Translations under genes and position numbers: made by a program
The notes under the pieces: model-generated
Databases searched by the model: none
Seen by the model: only the letters and a program-made list of their open reading frames with translations
Told to the model about the DNA's origin: nothing
Shown: positions 8,025 to 31,527 of the stretch, piece after piece
Position numbering within the stretch: position 1 is the stretch's first letter
Layout: each line of letters begins with the position of its first letter
NCBI GenBank assembly: GCA_051362555.1
Contig: CM120648.1
Coordinates: 13,264,587-13,328,586 of the forward strand
Length of the DNA stretch: 64,000 bases
Direction: 5' to 3'
Source: Lingula anatina
Lineage: Eukaryota > Animalia > Brachiopoda

Positions 8025-8937
8025 TGTGTTTATGTTTCACAGATGTTACAAATTGATTTCTGTGTGTCACAGCTTTCCATGCTGTCCCTGTAGATAATAA
8101 CAGTTGCTTTGCAAAGCTCCAGATCCACTGAAAGATAACCCCAGGGTGTCATAAGAACAATATGCATTCAAAGCAATGACACAAACTGAGGTTCTGCTAA
8201 TTCTCATAAATTCATCTTTTCAGTAAAAGACCTGAAAAGTGTTCCATCTTCCACTCAACGAAGTCTCTTTTCTCCAAGATATCTCACACAACTGTGGTGC
8301 TAAAATATTTCAGTAGCGGCTAATTCCATTGCCAGTCCTTCACCATATAATGTGTTAAATAAGAAGTCATAAATTGAAGTAATAAAATTAGCTAATACAT
8401 CCATATGAACATCCATATCCAAACATTCATTTCTTCATCTAATTGTATAATTTAATATACACTTCTTTATCCTCTCACAATATCACAATTCAACCACAAA
8501 GTGCAAACATCAACCACATTTGTTGAAAAAAATTGTAATGATCTGAATCTCAGTAATATCATTATCTCTGCCCAACCAGTCAGAGCCAGAAGCAGAAAAG
8601 CTACAGCCACCTTTCCGCCTTTGACGCCACAGGCGCGACATTCCTCTATTTGTGAACGAAAAACACTCTAGAGAACCAAAGCATTGGACTCAACACAGCA
8701 CTAAAATGCACTTTTCTTTTTGCTATACATATCATTTTCACGACAGCGGGGGGAATAGCAACACATGATAATGACTCATCCGACATCAAACATATTCAGA
8801 ATATTTATTGATTGCCTTGTGAAAATGCCAAGCAGAGAAAATAGAAAATCTGCGGTGATGTTGTAGAACGTCCTAGGAACTTATTCCTGATAATGCCCTC
8901 TCTACTCAAAAGAAATGTATTAAGCTACAAAGCTTAC

Positions 8938-9020
8938 CTTGAATCTCTTACATCGTTGTCCAGTGAAGACTGAAAATTGAGAAACTGTTTTGACGAAGAC
9001 CTTCGTCCCACTACTTTTCC
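8938..9020 (-). other. Putative first (non-coding) exon of the minus-strand gene
   Basis: Minus-strand donor TTCAAG|gtaagc at 8938/8937, just downstream of an ETS motif; the start coordinate is approximate. Confidence 0.55.
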
Positions 9021-9265
9021 ACTACCGGAAGTAAATTGTCAGGTTGATCATAGAAACAAGATGACCCCGGCATGACCATGGAGCATGGAACGAACCAAAA
9101 CTTTCAAAATTAAACAATCTGTTATAACCAATGAAGCTTCATTTTAAATCTTATAAAGCCTTTGGAAATTATACAAAGAAATTCTGTAAGGTTTGACAAA
9201 GCGTTTGACAATCGTCTTTTGGAAAATCTTAATTTCAATCCTGTCGGAAAACACCACTCACTTGT
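9020..9265. promoter_or_regulatory. Putative bidirectional promoter (minus-strand gene / telomerase RNA)
   Basis: CCGGAAGT (ETS/GABP) at 9025-9032, X-box-like GTTGATCATAGAAAC at about 9043-9057, CCAAT at 9128-9132 and TATAAA at about 9152, between two divergent units. Confidence 0.5.
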
Positions 9266-9658
9266 TGGGGCATGCATGGCGGGCCGAGTACGGACAGCCG
9301 TGCAACTCTAACCCTAACTATTCTTGTGCCTCGTCTCGCGGCAAACCGTGCTGTTTTCCGAGACAAGCTTTCATCACGGGGACTTGGCATTCATTTAAAC
9401 TCAAAAAAGCTTGTTTTTGCTCCGGCAACTTTGCTAAACGGTACCGACGGCTCTATCGCTCTTGGCACGGAGGCCCTTGTTGACCGCGATGGGCGACCGG
9501 TGCTAGGGTTCGTCCCTACTCGACGCTCTTTGTTTGGTTAATATTGGGCCTGGGATGTCTCCCAAGTTTGACTGCCAATTCATTAAACACCAGTGCTTTT
9601 AGAAAATGCTGCTTGGCACGAGTTTGGCCTTGTGGCGTTTTCTTACATGCGCACATAT
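9265..9658 (+). ncRNA. TERC: Telomerase RNA (TR), H/ACA type
   Basis: Template CTAACCCTAAC at 9308-9318. P1.1-like hairpin GTACGG-ACAG-CCGTGC at 9288-9303. P2b CCGTG/CACGG with U-rich loop TTTTCC. P3 GAGACAAGC(9360-9368)/GCTTGTTTT(9409-9417) preceded by A6. P1 9278-9290/9418-9436. Three-way junction at 9462-9578. Terminal hairpin 9601-9643 followed by ACA (9645 ACATGC, or 9653). Ends are approximate. Confidence 0.85.
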
Positions 9659-11152
9659 TTCTTTTTAAGGAACAGAATCTCGCCTGGGTATCAGTGGTAA
9701 CTAGTGCTTTTCACCATTTCCAGATATGATTTTTTTTTTTTTCATTTTGTATCTCTAAGTCCAAGAAAAATCTATGCCAGTACTCCTGCTTATGTAGATT
9801 CCTGAATTTCGCCACTGAGGCTATTTTCCTTCTACTTTTTTAAAATTTAAATTTCTTTACAATTAAAAATATTAATAATTAAGCCCTTTAAATAGTGTAT
9901 TCAAGATTTTGTTAGTTCCACTTCAATCGATCCCAAATTCTATGAATATTTTACCTAAAATAAGTTCGAACTTTTTTTGTGTGTGATCAAACTCTTTAGG
10001 AGGGAGTAATTAGAATACAACTACAAGGAAGGAGATGATATCAAAATAAAACGTGAGGTGCAGCTTATTTGCCTTTAAAAGACAGAGCATACCACTCTGC
10101 CAAAACATCTAAAACAGTACACAAAAACTTCTATTTAACACATCATCAGAAAATGTTTTATAAAAATAAATGAAAATTTATTTCAGTAAAATATGTTAAG
10201 ATACACAAATCAACAAATTCTTTAAACATATTTTTATATAATAATTTTAAAGACATTATGTTTTAGCAAGTCTGCTACAGAAGTTGTTTAATAACCATTG
10301 ATAATAATCTAGTAATGCACAAAAAAACAAGGAGATATTAATTATACACATGAATTGACATCTTCAGACATGAACCTAGGTTTAAAAAAACCTCTAAACA
10401 TGGGATCCAACACCTAACCTTGACAAATCTCAGGAACAATCAGAATTGAATTTTTAAAAAAGCGGTATTCTGCTTTTCCGCAGAAAAAAACAGTCTGCAA
10501 CTATGGCCATTGTCAGCAATTTGAAATTAGACTCAGAGATGCAGAATTCTTCAATGGCTTAATATAATTACAAATACTCCAAACTGAAGAACCACCAATT
10601 TTATAAAATGAAAAGTAGAAATAATTTAAATATAAGCAATATTTCCTCAAAATATCTGTGATAACATTTCCTTCTGACAATGGCTTGTTACAGGTTGCAG
10701 TATCTGGAGATTTAAACAACTTTGGCAAAAATAGTAAAAGAGAATTTTATCAGAGAAGTGAAGCCAAGAAAAGCCCATAATCTCCAGTAGTCCAAATCTT
10801 CAATCATTATCTTTCAACTTTTTCTTCCTTGACTATTTATAAAGCTAGAGATCACTCCAAGTGGGTACACTGCAGCCGAGGAAAAATGCAAAATATTCTT
10901 TATAAAATATAATGAAAGTCAAAATCAGTTGAAATTGTAACAACTTTTATCCTCAATTTTAAATCAAAATTTTTGAAGAGCATTTATGATATCTTGTTAA
11001 AAAAAACATTGCTAATGATAACATAAATCTATGAAAGGTGTAAGTAATAATGGTAGGAATCATCCAAAAGAAAGTTTATTCCATTCCTCTTCTCGATGTG
11101 TAAAATTGTAACAATATTGCTGTGCCAAAAAAGTAAAAAAAATCTCCCAAAG

Positions 11153-13122
11153 TCATTTTGGTTCAGGTGAAACAAACCTGCTAAGTGTGGGCAATGGTGG
11201 TCTTTTACTAGATTTGTTAAACGTTTTAAGTGAGGGTCCCTTGGAGGACTTTACTTTCGCAGTGAGTGGTCTTGGAAGGGGCTGGACAAAGGTCATATGA
11301 CCCCCGAGTCCGTTGTAACCAGTTCGAAACACAGAGGACTGACTACCAGCTTTGTTCTTGTTAAAGATGGAGTACTGACCAAAATCTGGCATGTTGCTAA
11401 TGTCCTCTAAGTCACATTTCAGTTTTTTAGCAGGATTATTTGTGGAGTTTGTAGCAGCAGAAGTAATTTTAACATATTGTAAGTTATTCTCATTGCACTC
11501 TCGTTTGGCAACAGTATTTGGACTGGGTTTGACGGGTACAGGCGACTGAAACAGGTCAGGGGTCACATCAAGGTCAATGGCCTCAGTGTCGCCCCCTACA
11601 GGTGTGGATAGTTGTGGCGCTGGGCTCTCGTGTAAGAGTCTGTGCGCAAAACTTGCTGCAGTGCTATTTGGGGAGCCGATTGCTTTTTCCAATTTCTCAA
11701 TTTTCTTTCTGAGACTCATCCTCTCTTTCTCCGCGTGTTTCAGATCCTCCTCTGACATCCTCAACATTTCTTTGGCAGATAACAACTCCTCCGTTCTGTC
11801 CTGCAAAAGTTTCTTTTTGGACGCTAATTCTTTTTTGTGCTTATCTATGTCAGTGCGCAACTGATTCCTCTCCTGTTTGATAGTGGTCTGCTCCTGCTTG
11901 AGGAGGGTAACGTAAGTACACAGCTGCTTGACCGCCCCCTCTCCACTGCCCCAGTGGTTGACCAACTCCTGGACATCTTCTTGTTGACCTGAAACAATAA
12001 ATATGATGTAGAAATTATGTACCTGTAATAATATGGACACTGCTAAAGTTATCCTTAATTGAGTAACTCAATTGTTATCAAATTAAAACTTGCAATTGGC
12101 TATCACTTACACAATTTATTCAAGAGCAAATTTCTCTGACTATCAGTTTTCATCCTAATATTTTTATTTTCTATTTTAAAATTTTCAAATTAGCTAAGGA
12201 AAAGATTATGTTTGGATTTTCTAATAACAGTATATCAGTAAAAACTGTATCCATTTAACAGGCCAGGTAGAAAATATCAATGCCAGTACCTTTTATAACC
12301 AACTCTACACTCTGTAAATCCTGAAGTTTCTTCCGCAGTCTCTTGGTCTCTTCTTTACAATTCTGAGCCTCTTTCTGCTGATCTTGATAGTAACTCAACT
12401 CACTCCTCAGGGACTGGTTGGTTTGCTGCTCTCGTTTATACATATCATGAGTCTTACGCTTGTTCTTTTCCATCTCAGCAAGCTGTTTTTGTAAAGCTTT
12501 AAGCTCTTCAAAGAGTTCATTTTTCTCACGTTCTTTTTGTTTCACGACCAGGCGTACTGTATCCAGCTCATTTTTTACTTTTCCTACATCGCAGTTGTCT
12601 CCCTCATCCTCGGCAAGGTCAAAGAAGAGTTTATGGATGACACTGCGCCTGTTGACATTGAGCCGGCACTGTGGACAAGTGTTGGACTGCTCCATCCATC
12701 TCATGAGGCAGCTGGAGAGATAACAAGTATCTGGCCATTAAAGATGCATAGGGACTCAATTTTTCGTACAAAAGTCAACCAGATGTAATTTCATCATTTC
12801 AAACAGTATAACATAGAGAAATGCCAAAAAGACATCATTTCATGTTACTAGTAAGTTTACAACCAAAAATTTTAAGAAGATGCAGTTAAAAAACTCTTTT
12901 ATGGGTGATAGAGTGATTAATACGGTTTATCCCTTGGCATGTTGACTTTATTTGACTGGTATAAGATGGTAATTCTTTTATTGTAAATTGAGATTAACAG
13001 AAACGGACATGGGATATGTTGCTAAATACTCACTGATCATGGAAGGTGTGTCCGCAAGGCACGGCCGAGACATCAGCCTCGCGGTCAAACTGCTCAGCAC
13101 AGATGCTGCACACAAAATGCAT
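11153..13122 (-). CDS. TRAIP: E3 ubiquitin-protein ligase TRAIP (RING + coiled coil); coding exons 13122-13034, 12711-12290, 11988-11153; 448 aa
   Basis: Spliced N-terminus MHFVCSICAEQFDREADVSAVPCGHTFHDHCLMRWMEQSNTCPQC is a RING-H2, followed by long coiled coils. C-terminal RTGYNGLGGHMTFVQP matches the TRAIP RTGFDGLGG motif, and there is a PIP-like tail. GT-AG junctions keep frame (1347 nt). Confidence 0.92.
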
Positions 13123-15115: not shown

Positions 15116-17043
15116 GGGCCTACATGTAGTCTGCACAGGTAACGCTGTTTTACGTGAAGTTTGAGAACACATGGGCGAGGCTGGCTGAATGTGAGGTGAG
15201 GGTTACTCTCTCTCTATCTATCTATCTATCTATCTATCTCTCTCTCTCTCTTGGTTCTTTAGACTTCACTAGACAGAGTGTTATGAGGAAATGCAGACTA
15301 CAAACAAAGAGATTACGCAAGAGTAACAGAATATGCTGGTGAATTTTTGAGTATACGAGTAAAGCTACAGGGTACGCGTACATGATGCATTTAAATTTCT
15401 AAATTTCGGATAAAACACTGCGCACTTGTTGCATGATGTGAATGCCTGTGTTAGTGCATAAGTATACGTATAACTAGGTGTACATGATTCATTTCATTTA
15501 CAATATTTCAGGTCAAATATTCTAACGGCATGACTGGCACATGTTTATTTGCACAGCGCCACAACTTGAAATAGACGCTTGGGCCTGTGGGTTTCTTTTT
15601 GTGCGGTAATATTATAGCTTACAGGGTAAGTTTCTTGCACAAAGAACATGTAATCATAGCTGGTTCTCCGGGCGTGTATGTTTTGCAATAACTGTAGCAT
15701 GCTGTCCACGATTTACAGTGTTTCAAGAAATAATTTTGGTGTAGAGTTGACATGTTAAGCGATCATTTAATTAAAAAAATCATTATGAAAAACCGGGCCC
15801 TATTTATAAACATGAAAATCCACATATATACATGAAGGTTATTGTACATGTCGGCGCTTCTTTTTAAAAGACTTCATTGTTAGGCATACTGTGGAATACA
15901 CTCCTCTTGTCTATTTATCTATAGCTACAGAATTGCAGGTGAATACATGGGCAATGGGCATACGGATTCGTTAATATGTCCAAGATGAATGCGATAAATC
16001 TTTTAAAAATCAACGGGAGGGGGATTTGGTGCCGCGCTTAAATTTACGATGTATAGACAATGTAAAACTCATCAACTCACAACTCAAATTAGCTCCATCA
16101 TATCTACTGGAGCTCAATTTTACTTTGTTACGTGTATTAGCTGAACTCAGTTCGAACAATGCCGAACTTGAATCTCTGTATAACTCGAACTAATTCCCCA
16201 CATCTAAAGTGCCCTAGCTATGGGGACTGTACATGTGCATGCTTTTAACTCACATCAACCGAGGACCCAGCTTCAAACAAAGGGACACTAAGCTCTGGTA
16301 GATGTACGCCTGTAGTACCTATATTGTATCTGAGAACCTCGTCAGGTGAAAAACTGGGACACGAGACAGCAAATCGAATCGGTATGTCAAATCGATGTTT
16401 ATTTATACATGTAGGCAGGACTAGTGTCAGACATCGATAATAGCTGTCTGTTTGACCTCTGAAATAAGGTCGAGCCTTTGCTACTGGCACATTACAAGGG
16501 TTTTACAGCTTCATGATACCGTTAAAACATTAGCTGCCTTGGTTATAGAGAAAAACCCCAAAACCGAAAACAGAATTATTCCCCAAAATGGCGTACAGCG
16601 TCACCCGTTGGACACTGCACTTAATCTCTGTATTTAAATGGTCTTTTGGGAAGTATGCTTTATTTTTGACACAACATATATGTACAGGGCATTGTTTCTA
16701 TGATTTTATCCGTTTTGCTTCATCTGGCCTTAAATCAGCTATTTTTCTTTGAATCCAAGTTAGATAACATATGTATACCTGAAATTGTTTTTTCCTTTCT
16801 TTTCTATTTGTAATGTATTGCGCGTCAGAAGTATGGTTTGTGAAAAAGATACAGAATTTTGAAATTTGCTGACTTAAATTTGGTGAATACGAAATATGCT
16901 GAATATGCTGCTCAGTACTACAATATATATATATTTTAACTTTAGCGTGATTTTGGTAGGCCTACCAGTTCTTAAGGCGTGGTCATTATAATTCTAGTTC
17001 TTATCATTTTTGTTTTCAGCGCTTCGGGCTTTTCCCATTCAAA

Positions 17044-17784
17044 ATGCCTTCACTTCCAAAAAAGATGGTGAAATTCTTCGTGATCAGCATTGAAGCAGCG
17101 TTCACACTGATTATAGGCCTTTTTATTCCGAATTTTGTCAAACGTTTCATAGTGCGACGCAGATTTAGGAATGAGAAAAACCCCAAAATGGTCGAAGTTT
17201 TTACAGATATCGATGGCTTAGCGTCCTCCTTGTTCACGTGGACACAAGTCTCTCAACGCTGGCAGAGGCAGATGCAGTTTCTTTTCTCAACGGCAGACAA
17301 GGGTAATTACGCGCCTAATGTCCCACTTTTCCGCCTGAAAGACAGATCGAAATGTCGTCTGCTTGATTTTGCCAAACCAGGGCGCCCTCTGGTGATCAAC
17401 TTTGGAAGCTGTACCTGACCCCCGTTCATAGCAAAATTGGACGCCTTCAAGGAGTTGGTGACCAAATTTGCCGATATCGCTGACTTTATCACTATCTACA
17501 TCCAGGAGGCTCACCCATTTGAAGGATGGTATGTCGCCTCAAAATATAACTTGCACCATCATAAAACTTTGGAAGATCGTTTTCAAGCGGCGGCCATGTT
17601 GGAGGGAGAAGATCTGCCCTGCCCATTACTTGTTGATACTATGGAGGAAGCCGCGCAGATAGCTTACGCCGCTCTGCCTGAGAGGTTGTACATCATTAAA
17701 GATGGGCGGGTTGCATACGAAGGGGGGTTTGGACCTGAAAACTACAAGTTGGAGGAAGTTGAGGCATGGTTGCAATCACATTAG
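17044..17784 (+). CDS. DIO: Iodothyronine deiodinase selenoprotein (246 aa; TGA 17416-17418 read as selenocysteine)
   Basis: Two ORF-track pieces lie in one frame, joined by TGA, giving RPLVINFGSCT-U-PPF...YIQEAHPFEGW...YAALPERLYII...GRVAYEGGFGP. N-terminal hydrophobic anchor; single coding exon; SECIS downstream. Confidence 0.96.
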
Positions 17785-28613: not shown

Positions 28614-31527
28614 TTATAAATTTGTGTGCTGTTGGTTGACGAAATGCAGCGTAAACTCATTGCGATCAGAGCACATCTTGTGACATATGTTACACTCCCA
28701 GGGATTGGTTGGACTATGCAGAGAAGCATGGAGATAGTAGATCCCACGCTCGAAGAACAGAATGTTGCAGTGTTCGCACTTGAATATTCGCCCCTGCATT
28801 ACATAGTGGTCAATGACATCATCAAGATCAGGAAATTCTGGAGGCTGGGCGTTATGCTGAATGGCGACATCCCGGACCTCCTTTTGGACCGTGAAGCGTG
28901 GATCTCCCAGCGTTGTTAGGGCGTGGCTGGAGGGAATAGAGAGAGGAGGACTAAGGGGGTTCGTGTGGAACCCCAAGGAATATAAATCTCGGCTGTAGAG
29001 AGTTCTTTGGTTTGCGAACTGGTCCCCTGGTGAGAGTCCCGGTGGAGAGAAGGCAGCCGCCAGCCCACCGAAGTTGAGATTCTGAACAGGATTAGAGATG
29101 GGAGCTTGAGGGATTCCTACGACATTTGTGCTACGAGATTTGGAAAAGATGGCATCGATCCCAGGTAAGGGAGTTCTCTGGATCACACCATCTCCTGTGG
29201 GGGTAGAACGAGGAGGAGGAGGAGGAATAGGTGTTCCCTGTCCTTGCTGTTGCTGATGATTCTGCTGATGTTGATGCTGTTGTTGCTGATGTTGACTTTG
29301 CTGTTGCTGATTCTGATGATGCTGTTGGTGGTGATTGTGTTGTTGATGATGCTGATGCTGGGAGTTGACGAGTGGCTGCTGATGTTGCTGATGCTTCTGC
29401 ACTGCATCCACACCCCCCTCCAGCTCAGCCCTGTGATTGTGATTTGTGCTGCCACCATCCTCAAACTCCTCCATTTCCTTCTTCACAGTCAGTTCCATGG
29501 GGAGAGAGTTTTGAGAATTATTCAATGCTGTGTGGTCAATGTCGGGACGCGAGGACGATGAGGAGGCGTTGGCAGTCGCGCTTAACCTCTCTGCAATGTT
29601 GTCAATCCTCGTCCCTGCTGAGGAGGCAGCAGGCTGTTGTTGCTGCTGTTGCTGTTGTTGATTCTGATGTTGTTGTTGTTGTTGTTGTTGTTGCTGTGAA
29701 ATATGGAGATTGTATGGAAATGACTGGCCGCTGGTGACTGGTGGAAATGTTTGCCCACTGGCCACTGCCTGCTGGACCGAGGCCACTGCATTTAATACTG
29801 CCTGCTCCGAGGTTGACACATGCTGTAACTGCTCCTCCAGCTCCGGGGACACCCCGCTAGTAGGGGGGCTCTCCCGCGACCCCGCACTCTCCGTGCTGTG
29901 ACGGTTGGGCCGCGTGGTGTCTAAGAACTGTGGCGGGTGGAGTTCCATGATGTGCTGATTAAGCTGGCTGGGGGTGGGTGCAGTAAACGAGCAAATGCTG
30001 CAGTGGAGCATCACTTGGGGGTGGGCGAATAAATGCTTCTTCAGCTGCGGCTCAGAGTCAAAATGTTTGGCGCAAATTGTGCAACTGAATGGCTTCTTGT
30101 GCACGCTCCGGTGCATGACCCAGTTTGAGCGCGCCGCAAAGCGCTTATTGCACACTAAGCACACATAAGGTTTATTTCCATAATGCAGATTCTGATGTTC
30201 CATTAATGTGTGTTTGTATCCAAAGCGTTTTTTACAAATGTTACATTCAAAGGGTTTCTCACCAACGTGGATGAGTCTTACGTGACGCACTAGTCCATTG
30301 TTGAACTTGAATGTCTTGTTGCAGATCTTACAGCGAAAGATCTTTTTTCCATCCTTGTCCTCCTCCATGGCGCTGACACTGTCTGCTACAGTGGGCGACT
30401 GTCAAAAAGAGAAGAACAGACACAATGAGGACTAGGATCACCTAACACAATTAATATCAGGGAAATTCAAACATGGCTTAATTCACCCAATCCACAATAT
30501 TTTTCAATTATTATTATTATTATTATTAAACATGGAAATTTAAACATGGCTTAATTCACCCAATCCACAGTATTTTTCAATATTCTACCCCCAATTATTA
30601 TTATTATTATTTGCTATATCATAATTTTTATTCCTCACAATTTTAATCAAGAAAGTTGGGAGGACCAGTTGCTTATTTCCTTTTCTTCATGTTTCCACAA
30701 AGAAAAGATCAATGTTTTTAAGGATCAAATGCTTTTAAGGTCAGGGGTATAATGTGGAGTGGTCCCTTACAGAAATAACACAACATGCTGATTTTTTGAA
30801 AAGAAAGAAATGAAATATGATCAATTCCGAGATTTGATCGTCTAGCAGTGACAATGTCATACAAAATAGTTTATATTTCAAACCCTAAACATCTGAATAC
30901 AAGAAAACATCACCTCCCCGGAAATGATAGCCCAGCTTAATAATTAATCCTCAAATGATTTTGATACCAATTTGCAGACACTCAAATTTATAAGTTGCAG
31001 AATACTCATTGATTCAATATCAGCATTGGGCAATCTTATATAGTAAACATTTCTCAGATAATGTTAACTTTCAAATACTACATTTGAAATTTTCTCCCAA
31101 GAGCACTTTAAGCTTTCAGCAATGGATTCAGCATCCAAATTGTCAACCTTTTTAGATTAACTATATACAAAATATTTTTCCCTGAATTACATTAATTGTT
31201 TATTCACCTCTGCTTTGATAAAATATTCAAGCAGTAACCACACATTCTGCGGGCAGAGGATATAGGGAAAATATCTCAAGAGTGTGTGTGTGTGTGTGTG
31301 TGCACGTGTATGTGTATGTGTGTGTGCGCACGTGTGTGTGTGTATGTGTGCATGTGTGTATGTGCGTGTGTATGTGTATGTGTGCATATGTGGGGTGTGT
31401 GTGTGTGTGCGTGCGTGCATGCATGCATGCGTGTGTGTATGTGCCCGTCTTTTCATACCTGGAGAATTTCTGACTTAACCATTCCATCCTTGTCATCTTT
31501 AACTCCCGGACTGACACTATCGGCCAT
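28614..31527 (-). CDS. Ikaros/Hunchback-family C2H2 zinc-finger protein; coding exons 31527-31459 and 30398-28614; 617 aa
   Basis: Five N-terminal C2H2 fingers (HVGEKPF linker) and a Q/H-rich middle. C-terminal pair [53 protein letters not shown] matches the Ikaros dimerisation fingers. Upstream exon [23 protein letters not shown] splices in phase 0. Confidence 0.88.
31282..31443. repeat. Degenerate (GT)n microsatellite
   Basis: Direct reading; adjacent to the splice donor of the zinc-finger start exon. Confidence 0.95.

Follow-up and report, generated by a model that had tools for sequence, protein, structure and literature searches.

In the window (the whole stretch of 64,000 nt of Lingula anatina DNA that was analysed) we identified, at 9262–9658 on the plus strand, a predicted telomerase RNA (TR) gene of 397 nt, which is very probably the working TR gene of the species. 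The length equals that of the L. anatina TR of Logeswaran et al. (2021; PMC8480181), whose Fig. 4D includes one brachiopod TR, from L. anatina, and whose Table S1 places this TR at NW_013580819.1:173,755–174,151, plus strand, 397 nt. The Lingula rows printed in Fig. S3 read letter for letter as 9262–9357, 9358–9428 and 9580–9658 (comparison by eye, covering 246 of the 397 nt, with no difference found within them); the H/ACA hairpin of the locus is also a row in Fig. S7. The published entry is a prediction, made without cloning or assay (Table S1 gives it no asterisk).

Judged by this sequence identity, the gene is already known, since 2021 and as a prediction. The original prediction, made from the same DNA, had thus recognized a telomerase RNA correctly (Table S1, Fig. 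S3 and the legend of Fig. 4D give the same sequence), but had called the gene hidden, which it is not. All 17 motifs quoted there are present within 9200–9720 in the order given, spanning 9277–9650; the start proposed at 9265 moves to 9262, the 5′ end of the published row. The 2021 survey of animal telomerase RNAs includes the L. anatina gene as its brachiopod representative; the gene itself is not news. GC content over 9265–9654 is 51.8%, within the top 1% among 390-nt windows, and the folding z-score is −2.83, none of 100 shuffles folding equally well.

TRs of the protostome type have a template that spans roughly 1.5 telomere repeats or more. Here the template CTAACCCTAAC (9308–9318, plus strand) has 11 nt complementary to TTAGGG repeats and occurs once in the 64 kb when both strands are searched; we found no paper giving a brachiopod telomere sequence. 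The 5′ strand of P1 (9262–9272) forms 11 pairs, including G-U, with 9418–9428, as in the published alignment. P1 forms in the fold of the domain 9262–9428. When the whole RNA is folded without pseudoknots, the probability of P1 is 0.0 and the 5′ end is paired with the template instead; a fold of that kind cannot form the pseudoknot. Hairpin P1.1 (9273–9304), adjacent to the template as in protostome-type TRs and ending 3 nt before it, is the predicted template boundary element (pair probability 0.93–1.0; also in the published alignment).

Both P1 and P1.1 had been noticed in the original prediction, in registers that do not hold. With P2 held constant, P1 (9262–9272/9418–9428) together with the long P1.1 gives −46.1 kcal/mol, against −23.8 kcal/mol for the earlier P1 register alone and −31.4 when that register is trimmed to fit the short P1.1; the short P1.1 itself has pair probability 0.0. 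Since both versions of P1.1 end 3–4 nt before the template, the boundary is unaffected. A boundary role of P1.1 is described in PMC8480181, with function shown only in the apple snail TR.

Inside P1 lies a P2/P3 pseudoknot with U-rich and A-rich strands, as expected of a protostome-type TR, with the reservation that P1 is seen only in the domain fold. Motif positions and folds place P2a at 9326–9336/9380–9390, P2b with one C-U mismatch at 9346–9353/9372–9379 and the U-rich J2b/3 at 9354–9359. The pseudoknot helix P3 (9360–9371/9406–9417; folds and covariation) can reach 12 pairs and is thus longer than first described. The A-rich run at 9403–9408 is predicted to form U-A-U triples. All of these elements are on the plus strand.

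A motif scan of metagenome contigs yielded 60 loci. Four of them (L007, L051, L057 and L060) have a P3 of 7–11 pairs behind an A run, plus P2b; an H box and a 3′ hairpin are also present in L007, L057 and L060. Judged by likeness to the published rows, these three (L007:1–370, plus; L057:385–870, plus; L060:170–580, minus) look like protostome-type TR genes, and they are probably unreported, as none equals a protostome row of PMC8480181 among those compared. L007 is cut at its 5′ end, and L060 has AUA instead of ACA after the 3′ hairpin. The fourth locus, L051:260–580 (minus) in a marine metagenome contig, is a teleost-like TR with a canonical CR4/5 three-way junction. Covariation had been proposed as a check along with the original prediction, and the pairs of P2b and P3 do covary over the window and these four loci: 84% of positions are paired, covariation is 0.313 (reached in 0 of 500 shuffles) and eight cells of the five-TR alignment are changed on both sides, in a set that is small and for a shuffle that related sequences can beat.

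A covariance-model search had also been proposed there. An Rfam scan of the window returned nothing at gathering score; the vertebrate telomerase family (Telomerase-vert, RF00024) matched 9276–9528 with 12.9 bits (E 0.77), far below its cut-off of 70 and thus short of membership in that family, and for the central and 3′ part the sole match, to sR35 (E 3.7), is due to chance. Our model R1, built from the four other TR-like loci, ranks 9306–9418 top in the window with 36.1 bits (E 2e-7; runner-up 14.8 bits), a result that is partly circular because the loci were found via motifs shared with this one, the scan motifs having been taken from the window and the published alignment. At E 0.01, 56 of the 60 metagenome loci fail R1, and the four that pass are those it was built from; we treated the other 56 as chance. 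Likewise, none of the 73 loci from a scan of viral contigs passes R1 at E 0.01.

These numbers bear on the suggestion that the motifs came together by chance where GC is high, or that they are part of an ordinary H/ACA snoRNA, an mRNA or an ORF. The locus is indeed overlapped by two stop-to-stop frames (97 and 102 aa), and Rfam gives no match at gathering score. Still, template, pseudoknot and H/ACA elements stand in canonical order, the 56 loci with the same motifs fail R1 at E 0.01 while this locus scores E 2e-7, and the poly(A) run X12 covers the neighbouring TRAIP gene but not the TR stretch. We therefore regard an accidental or unrelated origin of the motifs as extremely improbable.

Box H, hairpin and box ACA follow at the 3′ end in the order known from protostome-type TRs. 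The box H region (9580–9592, plus) offers two candidates: the published UCAUUA at 9580–9585, which departs from ANANNA, and ACACCA at 9587–9592, the sole ANANNA before the hairpin. The 3′ H/ACA hairpin itself (P7a, P7b/P8a and P8b; 9593–9652, plus), with a CAB-like loop at 9618–9626, has pair probabilities of 0.7–1.0 and agrees with the row of Fig. S7. Closing P7a adds 6.3 kcal/mol and puts box ACA at 9653–9655 (plus), where the published row also has it and 3 nt before the predicted 3′ end. The hairpin was thus rightly seen, but not the ACAUGC end once assigned to it: P7a shares bases of its 3′ strand with ACATGC at 9645, and the predicted RNA ends in ACAUAU. With the ACA box at 9653, the likeness to the end of human TR is therefore coincidental.

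The central domain (9429–9579) folds as one long stem with small companions, in line with the one or two long stems on P4 of protostome-type TRs. Folds on the plus strand give a weak P4 (9440–9443/9573–9576), absent from the centroid, a short P5 (9444–9465), a long P6 rod (9471–9551), which is likely the eCR4/5, and a small hairpin (9552–9563). The template-pseudoknot plus H/ACA architecture of the original prediction stands in its canonical order, whereas its CR4/5-like three-way junction does not: forcing a canonical junction (P5, P6 and P6.1) yields −38.3 or −36.1 kcal/mol against −54.4 kcal/mol, a cost of 16–18 kcal/mol, so the central domain is no canonical CR4/5, which agrees with PMC8480181. 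In position, the hairpin at 9552–9563 corresponds to a P6.1 following P6, but the P6.1 pattern is absent from its 4-nt loop, UGUC. In PMC8480181, the protostome stems are described as having no sequence similarity to CR4/5 and P6.1 as lost in protostomes, and a 2025 paper (PMC11892584) repeats both statements; the former also reports stimulation of activity in trans by the P6 stem of the apple snail TR.

At the tip of the P6 rod we found a hairpin resembling P6.1, AGGG-UUCGU-CCCU (9505–9517, plus; pair probability 0.98–1.0). It conforms to the definition of P6.1 that we took from PMC2965242 and PMC3950677 (a stem of 4 bp and a loop of 5 nt whose second base is U and whose fourth is G); according to these papers, this second U and fourth G are invariant and needed for catalysis. 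The loop is the same as that of medaka P6.1, given in PMC3950677 as UUCG plus U, and the stem is one compensatory pair away from the junction hairpin of the fish-like L051 (AGAG-UUCGU-CUCU). Among 5000 shuffles of the domain, 53 gave a UUNGN hairpin with Watson-Crick pairs, and 471 did so when G-U pairs were allowed. The 7 nt at 9504–9510 (plus) are complementary to the template; they are locally paired in the tip hairpin in all folds, and the complementarity is probably due to chance.

The same type of loop caps the last long stem before box H in the other protostome-type TRs (UUUGU in L007, UUCGU in L057 and CUUCGUA in L060, where the innermost stem pair does not form), so that UU(C/U)GU is found at the tip in the window and in 3/3 of the others. 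For these four TRs the ends of the central domain were set at box H, and one fixed rule was applied to all loci in the control comparison. By this rule, UU(C/U)GU tips occur in 4 of 88 distinct control loci (133 loci, three too short, near-duplicates merged) and in 4 of 290 window tiles, counts to be read with the fact that the motif was widened to Y after L007 had been seen; the stricter prior motif UUNGN is present in all four TRs and in 7 of the 88 controls. When each domain was shuffled, any loop with UU(C/U)GU appeared in 8–12 of 800 sequences and UUNGN in 31–46 of 800. When the five tips, including that of L051, are aligned over 27 columns, the loop positions U, U, G and U are the sole invariant columns, while in the stem four of the five pairs change on both sides, a score reached by 11 of 500 shuffles.

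By analogy with the vertebrate molecule, the UUCGU loop likely does the job of vertebrate P6.1, on a kinked rod rather than at a three-way junction. We tentatively suggest, at somewhat under an even chance, that the tip loop is a functional remnant: protostomes would have lost the junction and kept the P6.1 hairpin at the tip of eCR4/5, with UU(C/U)GU contacting TERT. Among these TRs, Lingula would then keep the most vertebrate-like version of P6.1.

We give even odds to a different account: the UU(C/U)GU tip would be a stable loop that arose by convergence, or else a binding site with no relation to P6.1, and the rod's active part would be internal, as it is in echinoderms. UUCG loops are stable, the medaka loop folds like one, there is no three-way junction here, and the comparison comprises four sequences only, with the motif widened to Y after L007. 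Against this account, the extra stability of UUCG loops usually needs the context C-UUCG-G, which is seen in none of the four loops; moreover, all four retain the fifth U, and the preset motif UUNGN separates the TRs (4/4) from the controls (7/88). In echinoderms, eCR4/5 can do without its apical loop and it is the bulges that matter (PMC4712671), which argues against assuming a role for the tip loop and is consistent with convergence.

In the parts of the literature on protostome eCR4/5 or Lingula TR that we consulted, we found no mention of the loop, though Fig. 4B–D of PMC8480181 may colour it. If P6.1 was kept as suggested above, the published account of P6.1 as lost twice in animals would need correction, and UU(C/U)GU would give a brief signature by which more lophotrochozoan TRs could be found. 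The loop sits on the stem that stimulates activity in the apple snail TR, which offers a test by a two-base mutation in an existing in vitro system.

Comparison with known systems outlines how the RNA would work. The assayed protostome TR, that of the apple snail Pomacea diffusa, also has P1.1, the pseudoknot, a P4/P5/P6 domain and H/ACA elements, but its template has 8 nt against 11 nt in Lingula (PMC8480181). As template length is linked to processivity in that paper, repeat addition in Lingula is predicted to be more processive than in the snail. Vertebrate TR (RF00024) shares with Lingula the template, the P2b/P3 core, H/ACA and a loop of the P6.1 type; Lingula differs in having P1.1 and no three-way junction, the loop capping a long rod instead. 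Echinoderm TR shares the simple helical stimulatory domain and the P1.1 boundary (PMC4712671); the tip loop common to four protostome-type TRs contrasts with its dispensable apical loop.

If the RNA works as TRs do in apple snail, echinoderms and vertebrates, the template-pseudoknot would be bound by TERT, the 11 nt of the template would be copied into TTAGGG repeats, and P1.1 would stop the copying at C9308. The long P6 rod would act as a second TERT-binding, activity-stimulating domain (eCR4/5), and the UUCGU loop at its tip would likely act as the vertebrate P6.1 loop does. The H/ACA hairpin would serve to recruit the dyskerin complex and to define a 3′ end 3 nt beyond the ACA of 9653–9655, in keeping with the introduction of PMC8480181.

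Expression was assessed by aligning four of nine RNA runs to 8700–12900, 6–25% of each run being read. The reference gene there is that of the TRAIP E3 ligase (11153–12737, minus), whose larger exon has its best match in L. anatina XP_013379845 (98% identity over 93% of the query; next matches 45% identity or less), which assigns the window to L. anatina or to something very near it. TRAIP coverage is good in X12 (poly(A)), thin in X18 and nil in X15 and X16. No reads fell on 9123–10250 in any of the four runs, which is a weak test, as two runs are poly(A)/oligo-dT and two are without TRAIP coverage; the data do show that no common mRNA in X12 includes the locus. H/ACA-type TRs are non-polyadenylated, and hence the runs are poorly suited to a TR.

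A silent or decayed TR copy, with the working copy elsewhere in the genome, would also give no reads in 4/4 runs; the locus was seen within the 64-kb window only, and the box H of the published alignment is non-canonical. Against decay, all domains are intact and paired, Table S1 of PMC8480181 lists one locus for the species, and the runs are ill-suited to a non-polyadenylated RNA. We consider a decayed copy very unlikely and retain the reading of the locus as the working gene.

The TRAIP gene lies tail-to-tail with the TR gene, about 1.5 kb away, and its 301-nt intron is confirmed by reads. Between the two, a short dispersed repeat (10399–10453) is matched by reads of all four runs that continue into unrelated sequence. 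On the other side, about 200 nt upstream, the TR gene is placed head-to-head with the start of a spliced transcript from the minus strand; the exons of this transcript are at 8938–about 9070 and about 183–297, and reads join 8938 to the exon near 297 across an intron of 8.6 kb. The two exons contain no clear ORF. The sequence CCGGAAGT at 9025 is, by its consensus, an ETS-type motif, and a two-way promoter common to the TR gene and this transcript is possible.

Two further genes were found in the window. A single frame at 16960–17784 (plus) encodes an iodothyronine deiodinase (PF00837, E 2.6e-67); because of an in-frame TGA at the active-site motif, its product is likely a selenoprotein. The other, at 28614–30401 (minus), is a C2H2 zinc-finger gene in a single frame; N- and C-terminal clusters of fingers flank a Q/H-rich middle, an Ikaros/hunchback-like layout.
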